A DNA stretch of 45,075 bases, the filler included, from Catajapyx aquilonaris (lineage: Eukaryota), in the NCBI GenBank assembly GCA_000934665.2. It is 2 parts of 2 records of this genome, joined end to end, with 100 filler letters (N's around TTAATTAATTAA, not from the genome) between each part and the next. Parts side by side here need not be neighbours in the genome. Positions count along the whole stretch, not along the records: positions 22,585 to 45,075 come from JYFJ02005889.1; 1 more part is not named here. One strand, given 5' to 3'. Below, in pieces: positions 6,601 through 41,563 of this stretch (positions are counted from its first letter, which is position 1; each line of letters opens with the position of its first letter). The translations under genes were made by a program, and so were the position numbers. The notes beneath the pieces are model-generated. The model did no database searches and had not been told where the DNA came from. It was given only the letters and a program-made list of their open reading frames with translations.

Positions 6601-9493
6601 GATATGAACTTTTTTTCAAGCTATTGTGCCATTTGAAAACTTTTTTTTCAGCAATGTGAACAAATTCCATGTCAATAGTTTGTATCATATTGTTTTGGTT
6701 TTTTAAATCTCTCTAATGTGATTACTACTTTGCAGACAAGAAACAGTGGAGGCTCCAGTCATTTTGTATGATGGTAAAGGAGTCGATGAAGAAGATGATG
6801 AAGAAGAAGAGTACGTAGTGCAAGAAGCTCCCTTGATATCAGTGGAGTCACAAAATAAAACTGTGAGTTGGAATTTGGCAACTTATTGTAGCTCAATAAA
6901 TAACCTTTGATTTATATTGGTGATAGTCATTCAGCACTGAAGAACTTGACATATCAAGTGGAAAGCATGGCCATTTAGTAGAACAGATCTTGGAGACCAA
7001 GAGGCAAATTGAAGGGAACGGACAGGGTGAAGGCAGTAAGGTGACAATTGTAAGTGTGAAGTGTGTCCTGTTCTTTATGGTCATGTAAGCCACTTTTTTG
7101 TAGGTATTCTTGAAACTAGGATTTGATTTAAAGTGTGTAAGCAATCTTAAACTTTGTCTTGAGAAAATATTACCATATTACTGGCCAGTAACCTTTAATT
7201 AAGTATAGGACGTGTAAAAAATGAATGTGGATAGATTTGGCCCAGGAAAAGTAGATTTTTTCACTTTTAATTGTTTAATTATTTCTTCTTCAAAATATCT
7301 CTCCCCCTTCCCCTTGTCCCACATGTTTCCTCTGACTGAGTAAATGTGCCTATACCAGGTGGAAAACTGTATTTAATGTGGGGAATGTTTCAGTAGGATT
7401 TCATTCGTGTCTGACAAGTCTACTTACGAATCTGACAAAATCTCGTGCAGTTTTTTTCCTGGCATGACTATACGATACGTACTCATGTGAGGTGACCATA
7501 GTGCCTATAGGGTAGCATGGTTGACGTATGCGTTGAATTGAAGGACGTGTAAGAAAAAGGGCGTGAGATATCGATATGAATGGTGGAATTTCCATGGAAA
7601 CTTGAAAAATATTCCATGTTTTCCGATTATCCAGGCACACCCATGCATTCATTAGCATGTATATTTGGGAGTGCAGTGTATATGGCCATACTACAGCAAT
7701 GTGACATTGCTCCTTCTGGTTTCTTTTTGTGGAGTTAAAGTAAAAAATTGGTGTTTCATTACAAATCTTTGACATAAGACACATTACTGAGAACATGTAG
7801 TGCTGCATTCAAATATAACTGCACTGTTCGGTTTCAATTCCTATGGAGGACCAAATGCCTCCCCTTGGGTGGCCCATGAATATGTGACTGACAGGGTCAG
7901 CCTTGTTTTGGAGTCTCTGGTGAGGCTCCTGGAATTTTCCCAGACATATGGCACAGATAAGGTGTTCCAAGTATGTGGTTTGCTTTAGTTATAGGAATGA
8001 TCTCTCAAAGCTGTTATTTCTTTGTAGCTTGTTGTGCCCAATCTAGGTGCCGTATTATTATAGCAACTGCTATGCTCAACCACCTAGGAGTAATGGGGCA
8101 CTGGATCATGGCACAACAAGCTACACAAAAATAACTGCATTGGGCGATATTAGCAATAACTAAAAACAACCCTCATCCTTGGAACAACTTGTATTCAGAC
8201 AGAGGGAACCACCAAGTTCATTGTTGGTATGAGTTTAAAAGAACTGGAAAGGGAAAGAATAAAATAAATGCCAAAGGTGATTATTGTTCCATTTAGCTTG
8301 TTGAAACAAATGCATTTTCACCCATATTCAAAGAATTGTTTATCAACTGTGACCCAAACTGCCGTAGTCTTGTAGAGCTTCCTGAGATGCAGACCTTCAG
8401 CTCAGTTGCATCAAGAGCTAATGGTTGCATCTTCTTGCACATCAAAAACAACATGCCAGAAGTTGTGGTTTTTGCTCCCTTCCCCCCCAAAATACAGTAA
8501 AACATTTAAAAGGGGCCCATCTTTAAGGGGTTAACTGATGTCACATTGTTCAGCATGAAGCAAAGTACTGACGGCAGTACCTTATGGGAATAACTTAGGA
8601 ATAACACCCTCATCAAGACATCGAGTTGTCATATCATGCATTTGATAATTTACCATGCACCTGGTGGGACATGACAACTCTGACTTCTTTATGAGGGCTG
8701 TAATTCCCCCTTAGGTGTCATGTTTGGGTTAGGGTATGTGGTGAGATAAGATGGTGGACTGCCAAATGCTATTGATTTGAGTATATAGCCATTACACTTT
8801 ATTATGTCGTGCCCACCCATTTACATTATGTAGCCAAATATGAGTGTTGAATATTGAATGGATGTCCCAGTATTTTTTATGAGGATATACTCTACATTCT
8901 ACAAGGTGTGTTGATATTGACATGGTGAATATTATTGACCCATGCCCTGTTTTTTTGTCACTTCTAAACTTTTGTCATGAATGCACAAGTTTTGCAGTAG
9001 CATTAATAATAGCTTGGCATTTAGGAATGGGAAGAAGGTGCAGCGGATCGTGGTCGTCGGCAAGACATGGAAGCTGTCAAGAAAGACATGGATCGCCTTC
9101 GAGACAATATTCAGTCACTCACTAGGAATGCCCACCCTCTTGGAAAATTGATGGATTTCCTTCAGGAGGATGTAGACACAATGCAGAAAGAACTACAATC
9201 ATGGCGTGAGGGAAATCGGGAGTACCATCAGTTGATACTGCAGCAGCAAAGGTTATTTTCCAAGTCTTCTTGGTTGGATGCATACATGCTATAGCAATAA
9301 TGACATGACTGTATTTTTTTCTTGCAGGCTCACTCATGAAACAATTGATCCATTATTGGTCATGCTGTCGGAATTGGAGCAGGCAATTGAAGGAGAGCTG
9401 GAAGGCATCAAAGTGTCCAAAGTGAATATAATCAAGAACGAACAGAGAATTATTAACATGATGACAAATGGCAAATTGCGTAAGGTTAAGTGA
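661..9493 (+). CDS. TRAF3IP1: Intraflagellar transport protein 54 / TRAF3-interacting protein 1 (MIP-T3), 5'-partial, 11 exons in window
   Basis: Phase-consistent GT-AG exons: 661-773, 832-924, 2536-2726, 2783-3026, 3130-3199, 3709-3862, 3928-4026, 6736-6862, 6927-7049, 9025-9251, 9328-9493 (TGA). Motifs: end of the CH-like domain (TGEAITVKPSKILSGHEADKTNKLLQAIG), RPPSARPAAPR, an acidic tract, HGHLVEQILETK, and the C-terminal coiled coil LRDNIQSLTRNAHPLGKLMDFLQEDVDTMQKELQSW, all characteristic of IFT54. Confidence 0.92.
989..1641. mobile_element. Non-autonomous piggyBac-like element in a TRAF3IP1 intron
   Basis: TTAA on both flanks (985-988, 1642-1645). TIR CCCTCCGACAG(G/T)GACAT matches 16/17. 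A subterminal inverted copy of GACATGGGCACTTTTT lies near 1588-1603. Confidence 0.85.
1846..2127. repeat. About 2.5 tandem copies of a 97-bp unit associated with a TA-flanked MITE terminus
   Basis: AGAAAAGCGTTATAGTATATTATATCCGAG... recurs at 1891 and 1988. An inverted TAACGCTTTTCTGTA is at 2113-2127. Confidence 0.8.
2241..2440 (+). mobile_element. tRNA-derived SINE (3' end approximate)
   Basis: Pol III A box TGGTCTAGCGG (2253-2263) and B box GGTTCAAATCC (2296-2306), followed by non-tRNA body. Confidence 0.65.
4580..4929 (+). mobile_element. tRNA-derived SINE family A, copy 1 (nested)
   Basis: A box-like TGGCCGTGATGG, B box GGTTCGATCCCC, A-rich tail, ~16-bp TSD AAAAGTAATA(G/A)CTTGA. A highly similar copy is at 29474. 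Confidence 0.88.
5216..5811. mobile_element. Tc1/mariner-pogo(Tigger)-type MITE, copy 1 (nested)
   Basis: TA TSD, TIR CAGTAAAACTTCTATAAGT, internal TTCGAGTTATAG repeats. A second copy is at 44169-44594. Confidence 0.88.
6325..6527. repeat. ~200-bp imperfect palindrome (foldback MITE)
   Basis: CGTGCTCTTAGCGAGTCCCCTATCCCC...GGAGCACTGT pairs with ACAGTGCTCC...GGGGATAGAGGACTAGCTAAGCACACG. Confidence 0.75.
8598..8707. repeat. Degenerate inverted repeat / MITE relic
   Basis: GGAATAACACCCTCAT...GAGTTGTCAT versus ATGACAACTC...ATGAGGGCTGTAATTCC. Confidence 0.5.
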
Positions 9494-14340: not shown

Positions 14341-15153
14341 GGCCGGCAATAGTCACAGAAAAAAAGTTCAATGCCTCTACCATTACAACCGGGTGTAATA
14401 TAACATTAATAGCATTGCCACCAATTCTTAGAAAGTTGACTGGCAAACAGTCATTAAAACCATTCTCAGCTAGCTAATGCATAGTATGTTCCAGCCATCC
14501 ACATTCTTCTCGTTGGTTCTGAATGAAATGGAAGCTTGGTGTGCAAATGTAATTTATTATCTAGTAATAGTAGTAATAAAATACTTCTGGTTATCAATTA
14601 TTTACAACATGATGTCAGATGCAGTGAACCTGGCCCAATCATGCTGCCTGCATTGTAGAGTAATTTGTAGGCAGTGTGAAGGCATGGCACACTGGCATGG
14701 TATGGAACAGGCTGCACCACGGTTGAGGAGTGTTTGTAAAGGGCTGCACTTGGTCTTACAGTTAGATAGGCATGAACAATAAAAGAAATTGAAACAGATG
14801 AGTGAGTCGTGGTCTGGAGGACAATTTTATTACAGGCACTTGACACAACCACTTGCACTCAACAGCTTGGAAGCACATGTCATTTTCTGAAACACTGTCT
14901 TTCAAAAAGAGAGAAGGCCTAGCAAGGGATGGCATGGAAGCAGACGAAGCCTACACTTATACTATGATTTTTGAAATTTGAAATGACATCACCATTATTG
15001 TCATTGTTATGGTGACTTGCTTATAAAAGAGCCACAATGTCAATGTCATTCCAACCTTTAATAAAAATCAGAGTATAGCTATATTTGCACAACAGGAATG
15101 GGAAGAGACATAAGCAGCAAAGCGAGGAAATATGAGCTGTGGCTGATGAGGAC

Positions 15154-15235
15154 TGCCTCGACCGGGATTCGAACCCGGGTCCTTCCCTTCCTGCAGTGGA
15201 AGAGAAGCGCTCTGGGCCATCTGAGCTATCGAGGA
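15154..15235 (-). other. tRNA-like cloverleaf (pseudo-tRNA or SINE head) in the 3' UTR of the ion channel gene
   Basis: Minus strand reads TCCTCGA-TA-GCTCAGATGGCCCAGAGC-G-CTTCTCTTCC-ACTGCA-GGAAGGGAAG-GAC-CCGGGTTCGAATCCCGG-TCGAGGC-A. Acceptor, D and T arms pair; the anticodon arm is non-canonical. Confidence 0.7.
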
Positions 15236-15248
15236 CCATAAGCCCTCT

Positions 15249-18200
15249 TTACAACCACACCATGCTCCAGTACAAGATGTTGAAGAGCACAAAACCGGCG
15301 GGAAAGAGCACTCGGCTACGACGGTCGATCCATGCAGCGATCTCTTGAGGCGTCATTGTGAAGAAGCTCTTGTTGGGAGGCAACTGCTGTTGCCCTCCAT
15401 CCACACTGTCAGAAGAACCTGCTGATTGACAACCAGGCACTGCCAAGCTGACCACCGTTTCTCCCTCCAGGTCACTGCAGCTTGCTACTGACAGTCGGCA
15501 ATTGGATACAGACAGAGCTGAATCTAGGGATGTTACTGTCAGCTGCTGCGACGATGGTGAGGAAGTCTGTGGGTTTAAACAGAAATGAAGGTATTGTGTA
15601 CAGGGGGGGGGGGGGGGATTCTGCACAAATACAGTCAGAATCTACTGCATCAAAGCTTCTCTCATCTGATCATAATTTTGCATTATGCCAGTTTTCACCT
15701 TGGTGTCCCAGACTACTACTGCCTTACCTGCCGATAAATTTTAATGATTTCAGGAATCAATAATAGTTTTGATCTACCTGATCAAAACTGCATGACAAAG
15801 AGTGAAGGTCTCCGTTGGATGCTGTTTTTTCCGAGCTGTAGGTTTTTCGTGACATCTTGGGTGTCAGCGTGGATTTGAGAATATACTTGCTGTTCACTTT
15901 CTTTAGTTGGACATTTTTTCTGTCAAGAGGAATCAGTATTGGAAATGGAATTGGGGTGAAGAGCTACACTGAATCTTGTATAAACAGCATACCTTCGTCG
16001 CCAGATGGAATTGACAAATGCAAATTCCACCAAGGAGCCGAAGATGAAGGCAGCACATACGATGAACCAAATTTCCACGGCCTTAATGTATGACACCTTT
16101 GGCAGAGATGAACCGGTGTTGCGAGTCAGGGTGATGAAGGTCAGCATGGTACTGGTACCTGTGGATGACTGAGAAGGTCACTCCTTTTATTGGTTTTACT
16201 CAGATGATTCAACTCACCTAGTGTTGTCCGGCCGGGTACTGCATTTGGATCCAACCAAAATGACACCCAGGACATCACTACCAGCAAGATGCTAGGCACA
16301 TAGTAGTCCATTATGTAATGTCCTACTTCTCGCTCAAAGTCAAAATGGATGAGAAGTGCGCTGAATTTTCCCTCTGGAACATATTTTAAATCCATTAAAC
16401 ACATGTTTGTTGACTCTTGAGGAGTGTAATTACATACGAGTGTTATAATATCTTGAAATCTCTTGTTGACCATTAATATTAATTTAGGTTTTATATTTAT
16501 ATGGCCACATTATACTGTTTGCAACACCAGAGTGGCAGAGTGATTACTCTTTGTAAATACTCGGATTTACCGGTGCTGGTATCTGAGCAAGCAAGATTCA
16601 ATGAAAGCAAGAAACAACTTATTAGTTATGTATATAGAAGCCATAAATATGAATGTATGAGTATGAGTGTTCGCATTTCTATGCATTGTTCACGTGGGAT
16701 GCACGTGTTTTTTTGTAATCTGATTGCTCCTCTCGTGAGAATTAAAATAATTCACTACCATAATGACACATGTAATATTCTTTTGTACATGCGGGGGTCT
16801 TCACCCACTTTGCCTTGACATGTTTTACCTTGTCGTCGAAGTTCGTTGTAATCGATGCCAAAATTTGGAGCCGACTTGGGGTATGTGTTGATACTTGCAT
16901 TGGTGGAAGTCCGTATCAGCTTGTATTCGGGAAGGTTGACCTGACTGTTGACCTGCACCGGATTTTCTACTGTCCATTCTAGCAGTAGGTCAGAGACGCT
17001 ATACATCCCTATCCAGAGAGAATAAAAAAGGTTCGCATAATTATTTTTAAATTGATTGCACGCCGTTGCAATCACATGTTGTGCTGTGCTGGATGCACAT
17101 GCTAAAGTTATTTACCCAAGTACAAACAGATACGAGTTACGATAAATTAATATAATTATGCACATAATCACACAGTTGTACACATTGACTATCAGTGATA
17201 TAAACAAAGTTCTGGAGATCAGTCACGTTATATCTGACTAATAAAAAGTACCGTATTTTTTCATCCCAACACGAGTTCGAGCGAGAGCAATAACATACAA
17301 AAATAATGTGCCCAAAATAATTCATAAGTTATACCCTTAAAATACTGTGCACACAAATACTGGAGAGTGCAATTTGTAATATTACAAGATACCGTATGCT
17401 GTTTTTTAAACAATTTAATGCATAATAAGTTACTAAATATTCAAGTGCTAAGTTCATCGTATCAGTACTGGCGCATGTCTGCTTGAACTGCACAATGTTT
17501 GTGGACTGGTGCATTGTCGAGCAGATGCCAACTTTTCTAGACACTTCTCCTGGATCACTGACCAGAGAAATGTGTCAGCATGCACACTTCCCGTGACTGG
17601 GGTGCGGTGTGGCACAAATTCCACTAGCAAGACACTATGTTCGTCACAGAAAATAGTTGTCATGACCTTCCCTGCCAAGGCCTACGAACCTTCTTTGGGG
17701 GGAGGTCAGCCTTATTTATTGTAATTATCGTAACTTATTAACCACCTCTCGTACCAGCTCTTATCCATTTGCAGTACACACGTACAGGACGTATACAGTG
17801 GCAGGGCAATTATTATATTAATATAATTATCAAGGTATGCATGAAAATATGTTGCAAAGGAGTCAAAATACTCTTATGTTTAAGTGTTACATTCGCTGTC
17901 AAAATTATGTGTGACAATGATAAACATTGAATTAGCGGAATAAAAATTATTAGCCTACAGGCCTACTGTATGTGACATCATTTTGAACTGTCCATTTGGA
18001 CAACTTGAACCTATCAACATATGATTACAAGTACAACAAATGGCATTGACGCCCCCCTCTCCCGTCTCCCGCCCCCTTACTTTTGTCAATTCTTTCTTGG
18101 TAAGTCGAGATTTCGGAGGATTTTTGTCCTTCGACCAACCAAGGACTCGAAATCCCGAAAAGTCTACAAATGAGAAGTAAAAATGCCGGCAATCATCGCG

Positions 18201-20223
18201 AAATATTCTATAGTTTTACTTTTAACAAAGAGATGGGTGAGCGTGATAAACTGATTATTTTACTTACGCAAAACCTTTTAATTCCCCCTTCTCCTACCCT
18301 CACTACTTGTGTAACTTACTCTCTACTACCATGGCGTCAGATTACTTTACGTTTCATCTGGTTCTTTTGTTTCAACCCGCGTATAGTTGGTGAAGGTCTT
18401 TTCCCTCACGGTCCCATCCTCACCCCTGTATCAGATAATTATATCTGTCATCATGTCGCAATTTTTTTTAAAGCATGCCCTATCCTCCTGAGACCCCTGG
18501 TACAGTATACTGTACCTTTGTTTTTTCCAGCACCTTCTGACTAACTCAAACGCGTAAAAAAACAAAAACAAAGGTGATTGAAAGGTGTACTAGGGGTCTC
18601 AGGAGGCTATAGGCCTACCTTGAATATTGGGCACTTTAGATATAGGCTAGGCTAGATCAGCAAACATTTTTGAACACCCGGAATATATTACGTTGAATTT
18701 CTGATAGTCAGCAGTACGGTTTTACAAAATCATATTACGTAAGTGTATCACACACTACTAAAACAGCAACACGTGCAAACTTCCTACAATATGGACATCA
18801 AGTCCATAACAAATGCTGACCATTCAAGTCTACATACAGAAAACCGGGGCACTTCTTTGCGCCTCTCAGAACACACTTTGGCTGTGCCTAATTTCATTAT
18901 TGGGTTCGACAAGGTGTCATAAGACATGTTTACATGTGTCAAACTCCGAATGTAACGAGTGACGTGTGCCTGGCACGCGAGAGCACGTCATACGTGTCAC
19001 CTTCATGAAGTGTGTGTGTCACTAGACCCACTGCAAAATGTCATGACCGTGAATATGGCCACATCGAAAAGATTTCAAAGCAAAACTCAGCAAAAATCAC
19101 TATGAGCTGTTAATAATTTTGTAACTAGTATAGGCTATGTAGCAACTAGTAGACACCTCTGCACACTATTGCTCAACTGTTTGGTCGTGTTCAAAACTAC
19201 TTGAAAATTCTGTGGAAATACGTAATGACTCAGTCAAGTCAAGCGGGTTGCGCAATGCCGCAAAACACCTGGAGTTGTCAAGCACCACAAAACTTAGGCA
19301 CGTCTTTCACACTTCCAAATGAGCAATGGTATGCGGAACCCCAAAGCAGATGGACGCAATACAGATATGCCTACTTTGCTATTGTCATGTCACGTGAACA
19401 GTCTACGAAATACGTACAGAAGAAGAAAAAAAATGATGACTTACAGCTTTCCATGATGAGTGTACACCGCTGCTTGTCGAACGGAAATTTCTGCAAGCTC
19501 ATGGCGCAGAAAATTCTCAACTTGACACTGTCAGGACAAACATGGCGGGTCATTAGGTCAAATGCAACACGGTTTCTCTTGAAACGTACCGGTAATTGTA
19601 CTGCACCGTTCCATTAGGCTGGATTGCCACAAAGACATTCTCCTCCATCACCCTCTCTCTTTCGTTGACAAAATAGACCGATGGCACCCACACCTTCTTC
19701 CTCAACCATTCTTCGCCTTCCAACTGCCCCGTACTGTTGGTGAGCCAATCGAACCTCAACCTAGGGTCGTGCCAACTATGCCGCACCAATATCTGCGCCG
19801 TAAACTCCTGCAAGTTCAATTGTTAACTACGACCCAAATGTCCTGTTTAATAATCGTACCAAATTCTGCGCATCAATAGATCCAATGAAATAAACATAAG
19901 CGTTGGTGACCACGGTGACAGGCTTGCCCGAATCCGCATCAGGCCTGACCCTGATGTCGTAGCGTCCATTGGCGGTGATGTTGTCGAAGATCTGGGGTTC
20001 CACGGCCTGACCCCTACGGACCTTATTAGGAGTGGCAGGAACCAACACAACCGAATTTTTGGAGGGCGGGGTACAGGTGGGAGAAGCTATGCCTCTCCCA
20101 CCCCTACCACCCAACCCCATATTATGACAAATGACATGTGACCCACCTGATGGAGACGACGACGATCAGGAGTAAGAGCAGGTGGAATGGTCCAGGCGTG
20201 TTTGGACAGTGCAAGCCTGCCAT
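15249..20223 (-). CDS. Cys-loop ligand-gated chloride channel subunit, pHCl-2/hodor-like (CG11340/CG6927/CG7589 group), ~497 aa, 9 exons
   Basis: Exons (minus): 20223-20147, 20013-19860, 19807-19590, 19527-19445, 17008-16829, 16373-16218, 16158-15993, 15919-15778, 15566-15249; 1494 nt in frame. Features: signal peptide, [24 protein letters not shown], Cys loop [16 protein letters not shown]1 [19 protein letters not shown]2 [42 protein letters not shown]4 [19 protein letters not shown]. Confidence 0.92.
17454..17690 (-). pseudogene. Degenerate mariner transposase fragment in a channel intron
   Basis: [28 protein letters not shown] resembles the mariner core SAGKVMxTVFWDxxGVLLVxF. Confidence 0.7.
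18484..18606. mobile_element. Short MITE, piggyBac-like termini
   Basis: CCTCCTGAGACCCCTGGTACA ... TGTACTAGGGGTCTCAGGAGG. Confidence 0.65.
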
Positions 20224-32060: not shown

Positions 32061-32363
32061 ACCGAAGCAGTTTGGTGGAGTGGCTGTAGGGTCCGACTGC
32101 TAATTGGGAGGTCCTAGGTTCGAGCCCCGGGGCCGGCAACTCTAACCGTGGTTTTCTGTGGTTTCCCACGGTCCCTCCAGAAGAATTCCGGAGTTGTTCC
32201 CTAAATTAATAGGCCACAGCCGCCTCCTTCCTTCCCTATCCTATCCCAAAAAGCAAAGTAAAAATGTACGCAAGAGTTCCAGACAAAACAAAAATCCCCC
32301 CTAAAGAGCCGAAAAAGGCTGATAACGGGGTAAGATATTTAATTTAAATTTAAATTTAAATTT
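32061..32363 (+). mobile_element. tRNA-derived SINE family B, copy 1
   Basis: B box GGTTCGAGCCCC, (TTTAAA)n tail, 14-bp TSD AACAGGGGAAGAAG. The homologue is at 41279-41563 (-). Confidence 0.88.
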
Positions 32364-34041: not shown

Positions 34042-37000
34042 TTACTCAGGCGGCAAAGTCCTCCCGCAGTTTTGAGACTGGATTGGGCTGAAGAAGTAGG
34101 GTGGCGTCAGAGGCGCCACAAAATTCTGGAACACTTCGGGACGCGAATACTTCATGAGAAACAGAGGCAGAGGATCAGGACGCTGCTGGTGAGCTGGAGA
34201 GGCGCCAGTCGAGGATGTGGGTCTAGGTGGCTGCTGATTGTCCACCACTGCAAGTTGCTGCTGGCGGTAATAGGCAGCGCACTGGTGGTAATAGTAGTTG
34301 AAGTACTCAGGTGAGAAGGGTGCTCGGACAGTGGTGTCGTGAATTGCCAAAGAGCGAAGTTCAGATTCGGCTGCAATATTATTGAAGTGGTTATCTGGGG
34401 AAGTCGGCAAATATAAATGAACATTCAACCTCTATAGTAGATCATCTACCTGAGTCAGTGGTTCAGCATGTTCGACAAAATTATTTTGGATGAATGGCTC
34501 TGGGTTCAAATAAACTGACAAGAGACATACAGCGGCTGATAATGACGGATCCTGATGAAACTGAACATGCTAACACAGGACAATATAATATTTGCAAAAA
34601 AAGTTACGACGTGTTAAAGAGACAAAAGTGGTACATTTCCATACACAATGGGATTAAGTTAGCGACCACATAATTATTATAATGATATTGAAGTGTGTAA
34701 TCAGTTTTATTGTATCAAATACACATTATTTAACTGTCGTATCATTTATTTACACATAGTATGCAGTTCACATTTTAATGAATGGTTGATACAGAAACAA
34801 ATACCGGTACTGAAATGTGCAAAACAAAAGAAACTGATCTCATGACATTCCGGTATCATGAGTGTCAACCTCACCGATTAGGTCTACTTTACTTCTTTAC
34901 TTGTAAAGTACATCAGTGACACTATTGTTTCCATAATGGATTAATGGAACATATTGGCACAGAGATAATAGTGTTTCATTCGTATTCAACTTAGCATTTA
35001 CCCACTTTCAGTTTTCTGCGCCAATGTTCTGTGAAATGATAAAATATACATTTTACTCTAGTGGATACTTTCCAGAATCAAATGCACCATTCACCAGACC
35101 AATATAGTTCTGTTTTGACAACTTAGCGAGTGACAAGTATGCTACATGTGATGAGATGAGCTTCTTTTGTTGTGCCCATTGCAATATTTGTTTCTGTATC
35201 AACCATGCATTAAAAAGTGAATTTCACATGTGTAAATAAATATTGTCGTGCGGGTTAGCATGTTCACTTACTCGTACATAGCTGTTCTGTATTGAAATTT
35301 GCAAATAAACGATTGATTTATTGATTGAACAGAGCAAGTGTGTGCCTCAACCTTGAGGTGCAAAACTTGCGATTATGAAGCTGAGATCAGTGACAGATGG
35401 GAAAATCACCCCCGCTCCAGTATACAGTGCCTTCCCAGGCGTGGAAACTGAAGCCGGGTAATCGAAAGCAGCAATTTTCCCACCAATGCAATGGGCCAAA
35501 AAAATTGTTTTTATAACCGAGGTGAGGTGAAATGAAAAGTGAGTCTGTTATATCATGAGTAAAAATACACAGGGCGGGACCAACCTTTCAAGTTTGTTAT
35601 AACCGAGAGTCTGTTACAGCCGAGGCTGTTATATCCGAAATCAACTGAATGACCCAAAATAGAAAGGGCATAAGTCCACCATTTGGCCAAAATGACTTTT
35701 TCGAGGAAGCAAGATTAAGTATGGAGCGCATAATATCCAGTATGAGAGGAAGCAAAAGCCCCCACCCATATGCTATATTTAAGCATGTCAGATTTGCCTG
35801 GACTTACACCATTTCCATGCTGAAATTTCTGGTTAGGAATGAAAAGGCAATTAGTCCATCGTGACGTCTACCTGTCAGAGGGCACAGCTTTCTACCTTGT
35901 GACAGGTGTTTCACAGTCATTGAAAAAATGAAACGCAAGAGGGAGAAGGTGGAGGTATACCACAAGGTTGGTATGGCATGGTTCGGGATAAATACGATGT
36001 CACCATCATGACAGGGGAACATTTCAAGGATTACAAGGGGCACTTGCAGAGCTTCTTCAAAAGGACTGTCACATACAATGACAATAGGTTCAGTATTTCA
36101 AAGTACAAGCAACATACCTATAGTAGTTCTCATGAGTTTGAGGTAAAGACTTCGGGAGCCATGAATTGTGAACCATCGTATTTCTGCAAAACTTGCAAAC
36201 CAAAGGTAAAAGAAATAGCTTTTCCAAGGGAGGCGCTATATGGGGAGGCATTACCCAGCATAAAGCCCTTGAAACTCACAGATGTTTTGAAACTCTGTAA
36301 GTATTTAACAAGTGGCGCACAGTCTCTCTATACGTAAGTCACTAACTAAGGACAACACAGGGGGAGAGGAATCTGAGGGCGACAGTGACTGAGGGCACAA
36401 TGTTGCTGCCTTGGTGGGAAATGATACTAATATCCCCTCTCAAAACCAAGGACGTATGGGAGATATGTGTCATTAATCGGTAAATACCGACATGTATTCA
36501 GAAAAATGTTGAAGTAGACTGTGTATATCAATGAGTGCATTATTTTGTGTTACTTATGTCGTCATGTGGCAGAACGGCACAGATTTCCTCATCCTCCCAT
36601 CATTCAGAATGAAAAGGATGTAAGGTCCAGTCGCTTTAAATCACTCGCACGCATCTGTAATGTTTTCCACCGACCTGTGGTCAACATGATGCCAAAGGAG
36701 ACTGAGATCAACATTTCCGCGAGTCCGACCACCTTGAAGAATTTACAACGCCGCATTTCAGTTTTTTTTTGCCTCTCCTGTAAAATTAGGTCTCATGGAC
36801 TTATGCCCTTTCCATTTTGGGTCATTCAACTGTAGTATAAGGACTGATACACAAAGTCATCCATAACCACTTTTATGACTCCTGCAGCGTGTGGAGAAAT
36901 GCAAATTTTGAAAATAAATTTTAATTTTTCTCCTTCAGAAACTGGACCACTTATTGCTATGCATTTTTAGCTTCCTATACTGTACTGTACGAGGGTCGTC

Positions 37001-40000
37001 CAATAAGTTCTGAGCCTGATGTTGAAAGACACGTTTGATGGTCAAAATTTTATTAAGACTTTTCGACGTAGTCACCTTGAACCAGGATGCATTTGTCCCA
37101 CCGGTGCTCCAGCCTCTGTATTCCGTGTAAAACAAAATCTTCCTCGACCCCACCCATCCACTCATACATTGCACTTATCACCTCATTGTCACTGGAGAAG
37201 TGCGTCCCACGGAGGTTTCAGGAGAATAATGAAGGAGCCAGGTCTCATCTTGTGTTACGTAACGAGCCAAAAAGTGTCCCGGTCCCTCCGATACTCCTCC
37301 AATGGTGCCTGTGAATGTGTCACACGGATCCGCTTCTGATCAGGCGTCAAGTCGCGGGTTACCCATCTGGGCGACTGCTTGTGCATCCCCAATATGTCCG
37401 TTAGGATTGAATTCACAGTACCTCGCGAGATGGCCATCGCCGTGGCTATCTCCCTGAGGTGAGTCGGCCGTCTGCCATGACCATGTCATGGATGCGGTTG
37501 ACGTTCTCCGCAGTGGTTGCCGTTGCTGGGCGGCCCGAGCGGGGGTCATCTTCCAAACTCTCCCGACCCATCTTGAAATCCCGTGCCCATCTTTTGACAG
37601 TGGCATATGAAGGAGCTTCGTCAAACAGTATTTCCCTCATGTCCTCGTGAATCTTCTTAGGGGTCATCCCCTTTTTCTGAAAGTATTTGATCACCGCTCG
37701 CAGCTCGATTTTGTCAATGTCGGAGACTAATCCGCACTTTCACGCCTGCCATTGCCAGTATCTCCTGATAGAATGATGCAATCGGGGTGAAGTTTGGGGG
37801 TTGTTGCTCTAATGAGTGTCACTACCTTCAGGTGGAAGGACATCATTATCAGCCCACGCCATCTACCTTAGGCTCAGAACTTATTGGACGACCCTCGTAC
37901 GTATGTATACTCAGTTGTTACATTGCCCATCAAATGGGGAGGTCTCACTGCAAATAACATCATAGAACAGTGTTCGGCCACTTTCGATGCTGATCATACC
38001 TTCTTTAATCCGAGCAGAGGCCAGCTTTATATCATAATTAGCATCCTTTAAGATGACCAGTGTGAGGGCCAGGGCATCTGTCGGGGCGTTAAACATGCTT
38101 CGGAGAGCTAGGAGCGCCGCTTTCATGTTTTCTAATTTGGCTGTAATGAAGTATGAAAACAAATTATCCATCAGAATGTTCCAGCAATTAAGCGTGGTAC
38201 TGTACTGTACCCAGGGAGTGCACAACAGGCACACTTTCTTTCAGATGAATTTCCTTCTTGTCCTTGAAAATTTACAAAATGTAATTGCCAAACTTAATCT
38301 TGGAAATTTCGACTCCATTACGGAGATTATAATTATATTGCGTAGTTTGAGTGTTTGGTGGGTGGCATAACAGGCAGGATATTATTCATTTGTATGAAGA
38401 AAGCAAAATGAGCACGTGATTATTAATGGAATCAAAATCGCCAAAATCAATATAGCGTAATTTATTTTTGAAATTGCAAGTAACACATTGGGTTCCTATA
38501 GCCTCTGCACCGATCTGTTTGGGCAGTAGTGACGTCAGAGGGCAATACGATGCCGTATAATAATTATTATGATCTTAGATCGATCATAACACAAAAACTA
38601 AGATGTATTTCTTCAAACAAAAAACACCAAAATTCATTTTAAAATAACGAGGATTATTTTACATGGGTTTTCAAAATCTAGGTTAGGACCCCATTGCGAG
38701 CGAAAGTGCGTTCATTTTTCATGACCCTGAGTGTGTAGAGGCACTTGATGTAATAGAGTAGGCTTATTCCAACTTGATATCTTAGACCAGTGGTTCCCAC
38801 ACTTTTTGTCCGATGGAGCCCATTTCTTAGAAAAATTTGACAGCGGAGCCCCTAACATCTCCTGAGGTAATTGCAAATAAATTGATCACCTAGTCATACT
38901 TTTTTGTGTTACCTCCTGAGCCATTGGAACAGGTTTCTCGAAGAACTCTCTCAGACATCATAGGTGCTCGTGAATGTCACCCAGCAACACCACTTCTGGT
39001 GCATCCGATGATGTTCTTCTTGTATTTCTTTCATAAGTGGAAAACACCGCCACCCCTCAACATATTCGGCCCAGAACCGTAGTTTTCTTCTACATGAGCG
39101 CATTCTGTCGCTTCAGCATCAAAATTTTTTATTCTCCTGGCAAAAATATCTGATAAATACGAGCGTTTGCAGAGCCATCCTTCATTAGCCAAAAAGTTTC
39201 CCAAATGAAAGTTGTGATCCATTTGAAATGATCATGCTTCATTCTGTAACTGCATCACACAATCATGCAAATGCGTGTAAATGCTTTCTTCGAGACAGCC
39301 ACCTCATCACTTCTGTGTGAAGAAGCAAAGAACGGTCATTGAGCAAAAGAACCGAGAATTTCGTGGAATTCTCACTTTAAAATGGTCAGATCGCGAAATG
39401 CTCATTTTCAAACCATCCATTTCGCGAAATGCTCTTTTTAAGCGGCCAGAACGCTTTTCTTGACTACACAAAAATGTCAGGACGCGAAATTAGTGTCGTG
39501 GCTGGTTCAAAAAAAGCCCATAACGCGATGTGGCAGTTTCCTGCTTCCTACTACGGACTACGCCAAGTAGATGCTGAAATTAAATCACACTATTGTTGTT
39601 ATCTACATGGCGTAGTGGGAAACAAGAAACTGCCACAGCACGTTATGGGCTTTTTCTAAACCAGCCACGACACTTTCACGTCCTGGCATTTTTATGTAGT
39701 TCAGAAAAGCGCTCTGGTCTTTTTAACATGAGTAGGCCTATTTCTGGGTCTGCTCGTTTGAAAACGAGAATTCCGCGAAATGCTCGTTTTCTTCGCTCAA
39801 TGGCCATTTTCGGGGTTTGAGCCTAACACATTACATTGATCCAGTTGTACCATGAAATGCCACCAGCAATGAAAAATTCGTCCGATAATAGGCGCTGTTG
39901 TGTTCAAGGCCAGCGGGTGGACAAGTGAACTATAGCTACTATGTATATTGCAAAAGTGTCATGTTATTCTCAAGCTTCCGCGGAGCCCTTTGCGGAGCTT

Positions 40001-41118
40001 CGCGGAGCCCCAAGGACAGTTTGGGAACCACTGCCTCAAGTTTCAACCATGCTTTAAGTCAAATACGAGTATGTTGAAATGTACTGTAGTAGGCCTACCT
40101 GAAGTAATATAATGCACAATATATTATGTGATCAGGTGAAAGGATTCATTTAAAAAAGACTTGCCTTAACTTGTGTTCTGAACACCGGGTAATAATTACC
40201 ATAATTGTTAGATGCAAAATGTGTTGGAGAGACACTTCCTGGACTGCTGAGTAGGTTGCCTTGCATTGCATGAAGAGGGAGAGGGGGGGGGGGAATCTTA
40301 CGCCGAAGTTCATCTGGTACTGGTAGAGGAGAAGGAAGTGGTGGTAGGGTCAAGGGCGAAGTCAAAGGTACGGTGTCAGCTGAGGAAGAAGTGGAGGACG
40401 GAGATAGTCGAGGGACTGCTGACAATGCTGGTGATGCAGTTAGCTGAATCGGCTCCACTGATGTAGATGTGGACAAAATAGATGTGGGGGTAGCTGGTAG
40501 GGAAACGGACTGAAGATCCGTAGGATGGGACATAGGGTTGATGGGCAGAATGGCATGATTAGATACCTCCTCCACCGACAGTTCTCCATTTTCGCAACCA
40601 TATGTCACACGAACCTCATCTTGCGCCTGAAATCACAGAGATAACAGCGTTGAAATACGTGCTGATACACAGACTACCATTTCAACTTGGCAGCCGATGT
40701 TAGGGTACATGTCTACAATCTCATCATGAACTTATGAAGTGACAAGTGAGCAATGAGCCATATCATATACCTGAGCTCGTCGCATGGCCACCTGCAGCGC
40801 CATGACCCTCTGCCTCTCGGCTGTCAAGCGGCATTTATTGCACATGCAGTCTCGGTACCTGCAGTACCGCTTGTGCCCTTTGATAGGAATGAACATCTTG
40901 TGATTGCTGCAGCGGGCACATTTTGGAGTGCGGCTATTGTTGCGAATAGGCCCTTCTGATTCATTTTCCATTTCGTCCCTGGGAGAGTTCTGTTGGCTCC
41001 TGCTGTCGTTACTCTGACACTGGGGTAGCTGACGATGCAGTTGTTGTTCCTGTTCGTGAGGTGAAGTTGCTGGTACCCTAATGGCTGTTTGGTTGGTTTC
41101 TTTTTCGACGCCTGTCAT
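34042..41118 (-). CDS. dsx: doublesex (DM-domain transcription factor), male-type isoform ~414 aa
   Basis: Exons (minus): 41118-40771 (DM domain [11 protein letters not shown]...[37 protein letters not shown]), 40626-40200 (AQDE plus Pro/Ser linker), 38140-38000 (OD2: [22 protein letters not shown]), 34370-34042 ([12 protein letters not shown]..., Tyr/Pro-rich tail). 1245 nt in frame. The acceptor of the DM exon is at 41246, so a further 5' UTR exon lies upstream. Confidence 0.9.
34481..34560 (-). CDS. dsx: Candidate female-type alternative dsx exon (coding part; donor at 34450)
   Basis: Phase-1 acceptors at 34560 or 34551 give (VSS)[33 protein letters not shown] donor at 34450 leaves a 79-nt intron to the male-type exon. 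Confidence 0.5.
34945..35240 (+). pseudogene. Tc4/Tc5-like transposase C-terminal remnant
   Basis: [22 protein letters not shown]...F..P and a Cys/His tail [14 protein letters not shown]...HMCK*, recalling the Tc5 C-terminal domain. Confidence 0.6.
35647..36827 (+). mobile_element. Internally deleted Sola1-like DNA transposon with transposase C-terminal half
   Basis: 32-bp TIR GAATGACCCAAAAT(A/G)GAAAGGGCATAAGTCCA and 4-bp TSD AACT. Frameshifted coding remnant [18 protein letters not shown] followed by ORF 35978-36337 ([20 protein letters not shown]). Confidence 0.8.
36990..37897 (-). mobile_element. Mariner element (irritans-like), internally deleted and frameshifted
   Basis: TA TSD and perfect 28-bp TIR CGAGGGTCGTCCAATAAGTTCTGAGCCT. 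Encodes RAVIKYF...[16 protein letters not shown] and a C-terminal GDYVEK, but the catalytic middle is missing. Confidence 0.93.
38788..40033 (-). mobile_element. hAT (Charlie/Buster-like) element relic in a dsx intron
   Basis: TIR CAGTGGTTCCCA / TGGGAACCACTG, GCGGAGCCC subterminal repeats, and a remnant [12 protein letters not shown] resembling Buster WLxxLAYLxDIF. The 8-bp TSD is not preserved. Confidence 0.75.
39330..39812. repeat. ~480-bp foldback palindrome nested in the hAT relic
   Basis: Arms such as AGTGTCGTGGCTGGTT..AAAAGCCCATAACG pair with CGTTATGGGCTTTTT..AACCAGCCACGACACT; centre ~39585. Confidence 0.8.
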
Positions 41119-41278
41119 ATCTGCCACTAGTTGTTGGAGTCATAAGATATTTTTATCACTTCATGTACGGTAACCTTTGTGCGTGATTTTAAAAATTCTG
41201 CGTGCTCCTGTAGACCACAGCGTTTCGTCACTCTTCGATGTTCAATCTGAAAAAAATTCAGAATTGTACGTAATAAAT

Positions 41279-41563
41279 TATTAAATTAATAATAATAAAT
41301 AATTCATACCCCGTTATCAGCCATCGGCTCTTTAGGGGGGAAGTTTGTTTTACCTGGAACTCTTTGCTTTCATTTTACTGTGCTCTTTGGGATAGGATAG
41401 GGACGGAAGGAATCGGCTGTGGCCTATTAATTACGGAAACAACTCCGGAATTTTCCTGGAAGGACCGTGGGAAGCCACAGAGTTGCCGGCCCCGGGATTC
41501 GAACCCAGGACCTCTCGATTAACAGTCGGACGCCTTATCCACTATTATGCCAACCTGCTTCGG
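41279..41563 (-). mobile_element. tRNA-derived SINE family B, copy 2
   Basis: B box GGTTCGAATCCC, tRNA-Asn-like CGACTGTTAATCG, 14-bp TSD TGTACGTAATAAAT (41265-41278 / 41564-41577). Confidence 0.88.

Follow-up and report, generated by a model that had tools for sequence, protein, structure and literature searches.

A probable doublesex orthologue with a predicted male-type terminal exon in the genome of the dipluran Catajapyx aquilonaris

A window of 45,075 nucleotides (nt) from the genome of the dipluran Catajapyx aquilonaris (assembly GCA_000934665.2) carries on its minus strand, at positions 34042-41246, a gene that is probably an orthologue of doublesex (dsx); here, the window is the whole stretch of DNA that was analysed, and all coordinates are window positions. 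The four coding exons of the model were read directly from the sequence and encode a DM domain, a linker, the OD2 dimerisation domain of Dsx proteins, and a long C-terminal tail. Judged from the sequence, the probability that the locus is an intact dsx orthologue with a genuine male-type terminal exon is about three in four. The parts of the gene are listed below in the order of transcription, with a slash at each exon border.

41119-41246, minus strand: putative 5' untranslated part of the DM exon, 3' of the acceptor TTTTTTTCAG at 41256-41247
40771-41118, minus strand: E1, coding part of the DM (OD1) exon, 116 codons from the ATG; donor CAG/GTATAT; phase 0
40200-40626, minus strand: E2, linker exon, 427 nt, Ser/Pro-rich; acceptor TTTCAG/GCG, donor ATG/GTAATT; phase 0 to 1
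38000-38140, minus strand: E3, OD2 (Dsx dimerisation) exon, 141 nt; acceptor TTACAG/CC, donor AAG/GTATGA; phase 1 to 1
34042-34370, minus strand: E4, predicted male-type terminal exon; acceptor TTGCAG/CC; split Ala codon, 108 codons and TAA
33913-33918, minus strand: AATAAA poly(A) signal, 124 nt 3' of the E4 stop, from sequence reading

When E1 to E4 are joined computationally, they form a coding sequence of 1245 nt, or 414 codons, with zero internal stops, and all their borders are of the GT-AG type; we infer that the four exons are joined in one mRNA. An in-frame TGA at 41142-41140 lies 8 codons 5' of the ATG at 41118-41116. The E2 donor at 40200 fits the frame of OD2, whereas use of another GT, at 40170, would leave the exon ending in phase 0; no Pfam family was found in the E2 linker. 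E3 lies on the same strand as E2, 2.06 kb downstream and in a compatible phase, and its C-terminal reading is ...ARIKE followed by one G, in phase 1. The exons are richer in GC than the surrounding DNA, with 55% in E4 against ~41% regionally. An earlier note on this DNA, made from the sequence alone, had named these four exons, and all four lie on the minus strand where it had placed them, have canonical splice sites, and form an open frame; its reading of the end of the OD2 exon is likewise borne out.

Members of the DM-domain family are marked by an intertwined zinc module of CCHC and HCCC type that is followed by a recognition helix. E1 matches the Pfam DM family (PF00751) with 74.7 bits (E 5.2e-21, cut-off 27), retains 8 of the 8 zinc ligands in the spacing C-x2-C-x2-H-x8-H-x3-C-x4-C-x-C-x2-C, and matches the PDB sequences of DMRT1 (4yj0, E 1.4e-20) and Drosophila Dsx (1lpv, E 5.3e-18). 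Profile and Pfam scans of the open reading frames (ORFs) of the window identified only one DM and one OD2 domain, and no DMA domain (PF03474) was found among the 115 window ORFs of at least 75 amino acids (aa). A protein search with the DM exon gave 1169 matches, of which 120 are listed, and the comparisons below use the listed matches; no near-identical protein from the same species is among these 120.

A profile built from the OD2 domains of nine other Dsx proteins ranked the E3 ORF first among 2019 six-frame ORFs (E 6e-8; next E 0.39), and the best matches among 177,635 distinct PDB sequences were the OD2 structures of Drosophila Dsx (1zv1 and 2jz0, E 0.0043; 2jz1, E 0.0061). In an AlphaFold2 model, E3 together with the read-through beyond its donor forms three helices (pLDDT, the predicted local distance difference test, 77.6 for the best model). 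When this model was compared with 350,542 chains by Foldseek, the top three matches were the Dsx entries 1zv1, 2jz0, and 2jz1 (1zv1_A with a template modelling score, TM, of 0.83 and a root-mean-square deviation of 1.5 Å), followed by UBA domains. Several observations pull in the other direction. The Pfam DSX_dimer score is 23.0 bits for E3 alone, 0.9 bit under the cut-off of 23.9, and reaches 24.1 with the read-through; the remaining four AlphaFold2 models have pLDDT values of 52.8 to 60.5; all Foldseek E values exceed 0.001; and the model was built on an alignment of Dsx proteins, so that fold and sequence are not independent matches. A search of E3 against longer proteins returned no match at E <= 10, its 46 residues being too short a query for a database of that size. 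On the sequence evidence, the assignment of E3 to OD2 is more than chance. Together with the DM score, the first rank of E3 in the OD2 scan upholds the recognition of a dsx-type gene in the earlier note.

E4 adds a tail of 109 residues, rich in Tyr, Pro, and Gln. Among the listed DM-exon matches, OD2 is followed in five proteins by a long tail with the opening Ala-x-x-(Asp/Glu)-(aliphatic)-Arg, namely in two from sawflies (P0031 and P0082), in P0037, which has the same DM block as the dragonfly Ladona fulva, in one from the springtail Allacma fusca (P0012), and in P0034. The male tail of Drosophila Doublesex opens similarly. When the five tail starts were scored with BLOSUM62 against all stop-free six-frame 10-mers of the window (mean -8.6, standard deviation 5.1), the tail-opening 10-mer at 34371 ranked first of 54,384, with a score of 23.4 against 15.0 for the next, and it kept this rank with P0034 and P0012, the two most distant tails, as the only references. 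The match falls precisely on an AG acceptor in the phase that is needed. An open frame through E4 was retained in 540 of 20,000 shuffles. P0034 and P0086 are two forms of one species, with and without OD2, respectively, and the tail piece begins at this Ala, so that a tail exon boundary at this Ala is seen in another species, too. In Thermobia domestica, males favour the long dsx isoform and females the short one (PMC9290531; the papers cited here were available in part, and statements on them refer to the available parts). Based on the rank of the tail start, the position of the acceptor, and the male bias of the long Thermobia isoform, we take 34370-34042 to be a genuine terminal exon of the male type, with its maleness assigned by comparison with Thermobia and Drosophila.

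Beyond its start, the tail is less telling. A word search of longer proteins with the whole tail yielded 106 candidates, none at E <= 1; a HMMER search of 1.84 billion representatives produced 0 matches at E <= 0.001; BLASTP against the long-tail Dsx proteins P0037 and P0031 came no lower than E 11 and E 3.0, respectively; three-sequence profiles of the whole tail starts (30 and 45 columns) found E4 only at E 15; and the best match in the ESM Atlas (0.79, 'Period (Fragment)') is under the trust level of the tool. The acceptor at 34370 has a weak pyrimidine tract and fails a lenient acceptor filter, whereas an in-frame AG at 34394, 24 nt upstream, has a stronger tract and would add 8 residues, for a protein of 422 aa. 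Homology favours the acceptor at 34370. Thus, where the earlier note had described a long male-type tail resembling that of hemimetabolous male Dsx, the first ten residues hold up well, and no homologue of the entire tail was detected.

At the start of E2, the peptide next to the DM domain (AQDEVRV..., 40626, minus strand) scored 13.2 against the male-tail start, the seventh highest of the 54,384 10-mers. The likeness between the two stretches probably reflects chance or a shared helix-forming character.

The last exon that is predicted to be shared among isoforms ends one base into the codon after the conserved Glu of OD2. The earlier note had singled out this phase 1 junction as the point where isoforms part, in agreement with published dsx isoforms: unsexed reads from a springtail and a bristletail diverge right after the OD2 Glu (PMC4538375), as do the Thermobia isoforms (PMC9290531). 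The product of the gene would be a DM transcription factor with a disordered linker and a UBA-like OD2 for dimerisation. Splicing from 38000 to 34370 would give the male-type protein of 414 aa, and the alternative from the OD2 donor would be a short end that begins with Gly, produced either by read-through or by splicing to an exon at 36881. By analogy with relatives, we infer that this donor also gives rise to a short end besides the long one; the choice between the long and short ends would be sex-biased, as in Thermobia and winged insects. Two candidates for the short end were identified.

37911-37999, minus strand: candidate a, read-through of the OD2 donor; Gly and 28 residues, TGA at 37913-37911; predicted protein of 334 aa
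36826-36881, minus strand: candidate b, a speculative small exon; acceptor GCTGCAG/G; Gly and 17 residues, TGA at 36828-36826; predicted protein of 323 aa

In the AlphaFold2 model, helix 3 runs into candidate a, with low confidence. Neither candidate showed a significant likeness to known female tails: among the 54,384 10-mers, candidate a ranked 2592 against holometabolan tails and 3756 against that of Thermobia; for candidate b, the ranks were 14173 and 492, respectively. The argument of the earlier note that at least two downstream exons are compatible in phase had to be dropped: of the AG sites between 37990 and 30001, read in phase 1, 427 of 427 open some frame (53 pass the lenient acceptor filter), so that phase compatibility carries no weight, and 34370-34042 is the only one backed by homology. 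E3 itself is symmetric in phase, so that skipping it would keep the frame, with a product of 367 aa. The pair of P0034 (with OD2) and P0086 (without) provides a parallel to such skipping, and so does an OD2-skipping form in the louse (PMC6721801).

Both candidates border on transposons. Intron 3 (37999-34371, 3629 nt) contains three elements bounded by terminal inverted repeats (TIRs), one of them resembling a miniature inverted-repeat transposable element (MITE).

36987-37900, no strand assigned: internally deleted mariner-like element; 39-nt TIRs, 92% complementary
35646-36828, no strand assigned: second TIR-bounded element, 1.18 kb; 33-nt TIRs, 97% complementary; AGTT on both flanks
34762-35226, no strand assigned: MITE-like inverted-repeat element; arms of 42 nt (90% complementary) and 55 nt (76% complementary)

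The mariner-like element encodes the HTH_48 domain (Pfam) of Mos1 transposase at 37449-37739 on the minus strand (E 1.5e-7) and starts 10 nt past the stop of candidate a. Candidate b sits in a 158-nt non-repeat gap between two of the TIR elements, and its TGA is older than the adjacent insertion, as indicated by the AGTT on either flank of that element. The three elements account for ~2.56 kb of the intron; part of the ~1.07 kb outside them may also be derived from repeats, and a stretch of 26 nt at 35392-35417 is 81% complementary to the interior of the mariner-like element.

Other repeats lie in or near the gene. Two copies of ~270 nt that resemble short interspersed nuclear elements (SINEs), at 32079-32363 and 41276-41543, bracket dsx in opposite orientation and are 83 to 85% complementary; their translations include a tRNA-like 'GFEPRTS' stretch, and the copy at 41276-41543 adjoins the putative acceptor of the DM exon. 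In intron 2 of dsx, at 39492-39674, there is a 64-nt inverted repeat with 89% complementarity and arms 55 nt apart, which is probably a small MITE.

The gene might, alternatively, not be sex-specifically spliced at all, so that either the long form would be the only one or the same forms would be made in both sexes, any difference between the sexes then being set by the amount of transcript, as it is in Daphnia, termites, and the louse. Several observations agree with this account and thereby count against a splice switch at this locus. No female-type exon was identified in the window by the tail profile and 10-mer scans; in particular, a profile of five tails with the holometabolan female motif G-x-x-(V/I)-(V/I)-N-E-Y-S-R-x-H-N-L reached a best E of 1.8 in the window, on the plus strand. 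Tra/Tra2-type 13-mers (the dsxRE repeats, which in Drosophila cluster in or near the regulated exon; up to two mismatches) are not enriched in the window, with 10 seen against 9.98 expected, and the sole one in intron 3 on the dsx strand is at 35319-35331. The intron consists mostly of transposon sequence. Price et al. searched dipluran reads, and the available part of their paper reports alternative reads for the springtail and the bristletail only (PMC4538375). The isoforms of the louse Pediculus are not sex-specific (PMC6721801), and termites, which have lost sex-specific dsx splicing, transcribe dsx in a male-specific manner (PMC8346542). Against this account, two landmarks of the splice switch, namely the phase 1 junction after the OD2 Glu and the start of the male-type tail, are both conserved. 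Moreover, the supplement of PMC9290531 shows non-holometabolan female tails to be short and dissimilar to one another, so that the failure to find one here is weak evidence. We therefore regard the lack of sex-specific splicing as possible, if somewhat unlikely.

As for the opposite view, that dsx is spliced sex-specifically in this animal, the comparison with relatives leaves the odds about even. A more far-reaching version would have the entognathan dsx already equipped with the whole insect splice switch, made up of a shared OD2 exon with its phase 1 end after the Glu, a conserved male-type terminal exon, and a short alternative end that begins with Gly, the short end being produced by non-use of the OD2 donor, with no Tra-dependent female exon. 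This proposal is tentative and unlikely as a whole; if true, it would mean that the dsx splice switch arose before the split between Entognatha and the true insects, and it would suggest an origin of the female end as a by-product of unspliced transcripts.

The identification of the gene as dsx itself could be questioned if it were a paralogue, whether a member of dsx-like (Insect Dsx Clade 2) or an additional entognathan copy of dsx. In a quick DM tree of 132 rows, the gene falls in a group of 66 rows that holds all 17 OD2-bearing rows (87 in the Shimodaira-Hasegawa-like approximate likelihood ratio test, SH-aLRT). In a more careful tree of 110 rows and 56 columns, which excluded 11 proteins with two DM matches and contained no dsx-like sequences, a 95/96 split separates the gene and all 15 OD2-bearing rows from all 13 DMA-bearing rows, and a 98/97 split leaves the gene, P0012, and P0034 outside the canonical insect Dsx clade. 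The latter placement would suit a paralogue, and in the approximately unbiased (AU) test a tree that groups the gene with DMA-bearing DMRTs (93B/99B/A2) stands, with p 0.395. Given this value and an alignment of 56 columns, the DM domain alone decides nothing, and OD2 and the tail start carry most of the case for orthology. In insects, prospero lies 17 to 245 kb from dsx (Wexler 2019; Miyazaki 2021); a scan of the 45-kb window, which is shorter than most of the reported distances, detected no domain of prospero. In addition, some basal hexapods have two transcribed dsx copies, according to Price et al.

The signature residues of the DM domain argue otherwise. Compared by eye with the supplement of PMC9290531, the recognition helix of the gene has the commonest dsx form, unlike the LV(K/R)ERQR(V/I)VA(L/M)HLY type that characterises dsx-like there, and this dsx-like signature is absent from the 120 listed matches of the 1169. 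The dsx-like identity that the earlier note had named as fatal to its reading is thus not seen in these residues. The motif CRYRDCMC and a second motif of the gene occur in the available part of the supplement only in Catajapyx aquilonaris Dsx, and MALQVA occurs there only in the Dsx proteins of Catajapyx and Allacma; the DM domain as a whole is closest to those of dipluran and collembolan Dsx, which points to a host that is probably an entognathan and not a hemimetabolous insect. With OD2 and the male-type tail start both present, a paralogue is improbable.

One residue of the DM domain is anomalous and counts against an intact gene. The codon at 40886-40888 (minus strand), between the second Cys and Asn-His, is AGC and encodes Ser, whereas the same position in 131 other DM domains is occupied by Arg in 129, by Lys in 2, and by Ser in none; the string CSNH is likewise absent from the ~200 DM sequences in the available part of the PMC9290531 supplement. 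The substitution may have arisen in the lineage, may be polymorphic, or may stem from an error of the assembly. A copy that is decaying or functionally relaxed, and intact in appearance only, as this Ser, the unusual DM loop between the two His ligands, the three transposons of intron 3, and the failure to find a protein with this tail in the protein collections searched might suggest, is very improbable for a gene with a 1245-nt frame open over four exons with canonical splice sites, the full set of zinc ligands, exon GC above that of the surrounding DNA, and a poly(A) signal past the stop.

Five known systems come nearest to the gene. The Catajapyx aquilonaris Dsx of Chikami et al. 2022 (Caqu_Dsx, PMC9290531) shares 49 of 56 DM positions by hand count, the DM block alone being compared; of the seven differences, five fall in the loop that follows the first His, and a further one is the change from Arg to Ser before Asn-His. 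The Allacma fusca Dsx (P0012, an automatic gene model; Afus_Dsx in PMC9290531) has the top DM identity among the 120 listed matches, 77% of 56 columns, and resembles the gene also in that OD2 is followed directly by a long tail opening with A-x-x-E-(V/L)-R, but its linker and the remainder of its tail are unalignable with those of the gene. Thermobia dsx similarly has DM and OD2 spread over several coding exons; however, its female-type protein (P0011) ends in a tail of 15 residues that has no counterpart in the window, and by its DM domain it is a member of the canonical insect clade, from which the gene is shut out at 98/97. Drosophila melanogaster Doublesex has both domains (1lpv; 1zv1, 2jz0, and 2jz1), and its shared OD2 closes with the same ...E-G junction, whereas its VVNEYSRxHNL-type female exon and an enrichment of Tra/Tra2 13-mers were not found in the window. 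The dsx-like gene (Zygentoma, Ephemeroptera, Phasmatodea) likewise encodes a DM domain and falls in the hexapod Dsx group but, besides its different recognition helix, has three exons in Thermobia and no sex-specific isoform, according to the available part of PMC9290531.

Genes of the dsx type with DM and OD2 have been reported from all hexapod orders, Diplura included (PMC4538375), and sex-specific splicing of dsx has been shown in the firebrat (PMC9290531) and in a cockroach (PMC6721801). An exon map or sexed isoforms of dipluran or springtail dsx were not found in the literature that was accessible, a scope that left out most subscription journals. The locus touches on the question of when, at the base of the hexapods, the male-expressed dsx of water fleas and mites became the sex-specifically spliced switch of insects, and makes it directly testable in this animal whether the switch predated the true insects. 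The model provides exact junctions for primers: 38000 to 34370, 34394, or 36881, and the retention of 37999-37911. Because the domains, the junction, and the start of the male-type tail are all of known kinds, the locus is of use as a resource and comes as no surprise.

Elsewhere in the window, a gene for a Cys-loop ligand-gated ion channel occupies 15000-20200 on the minus strand, and scans with Rfam and ARAGORN detected one tRNA gene only, tRNA-Gly, far from dsx and beside the last exon of the channel gene. These and the remaining features are listed below.

19830-20165, minus strand: Neur_chan_LBD/Neur_chan_memb exon of the ion channel gene (Pfam)
19556-19822, minus strand: exon of the same gene (Pfam)
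19374-19613, minus strand: exon of the same gene (Pfam)
16144-16509, minus strand: exon of the same gene (Pfam)
15926-16177, minus strand: exon of the same gene (Pfam)
15154-15235, minus strand: tRNA-Gly(TCC), 82 nt (Rfam/ARAGORN)
9025-9490, plus strand: MIP-T3 gene (TRAF3IP1/IFT54-type), two exons; Pfam MIP-T3_C, 78.7 and 30.6 bits
1862-2055, plus strand: tandem duplication of a 97-nt unit, 97% identity

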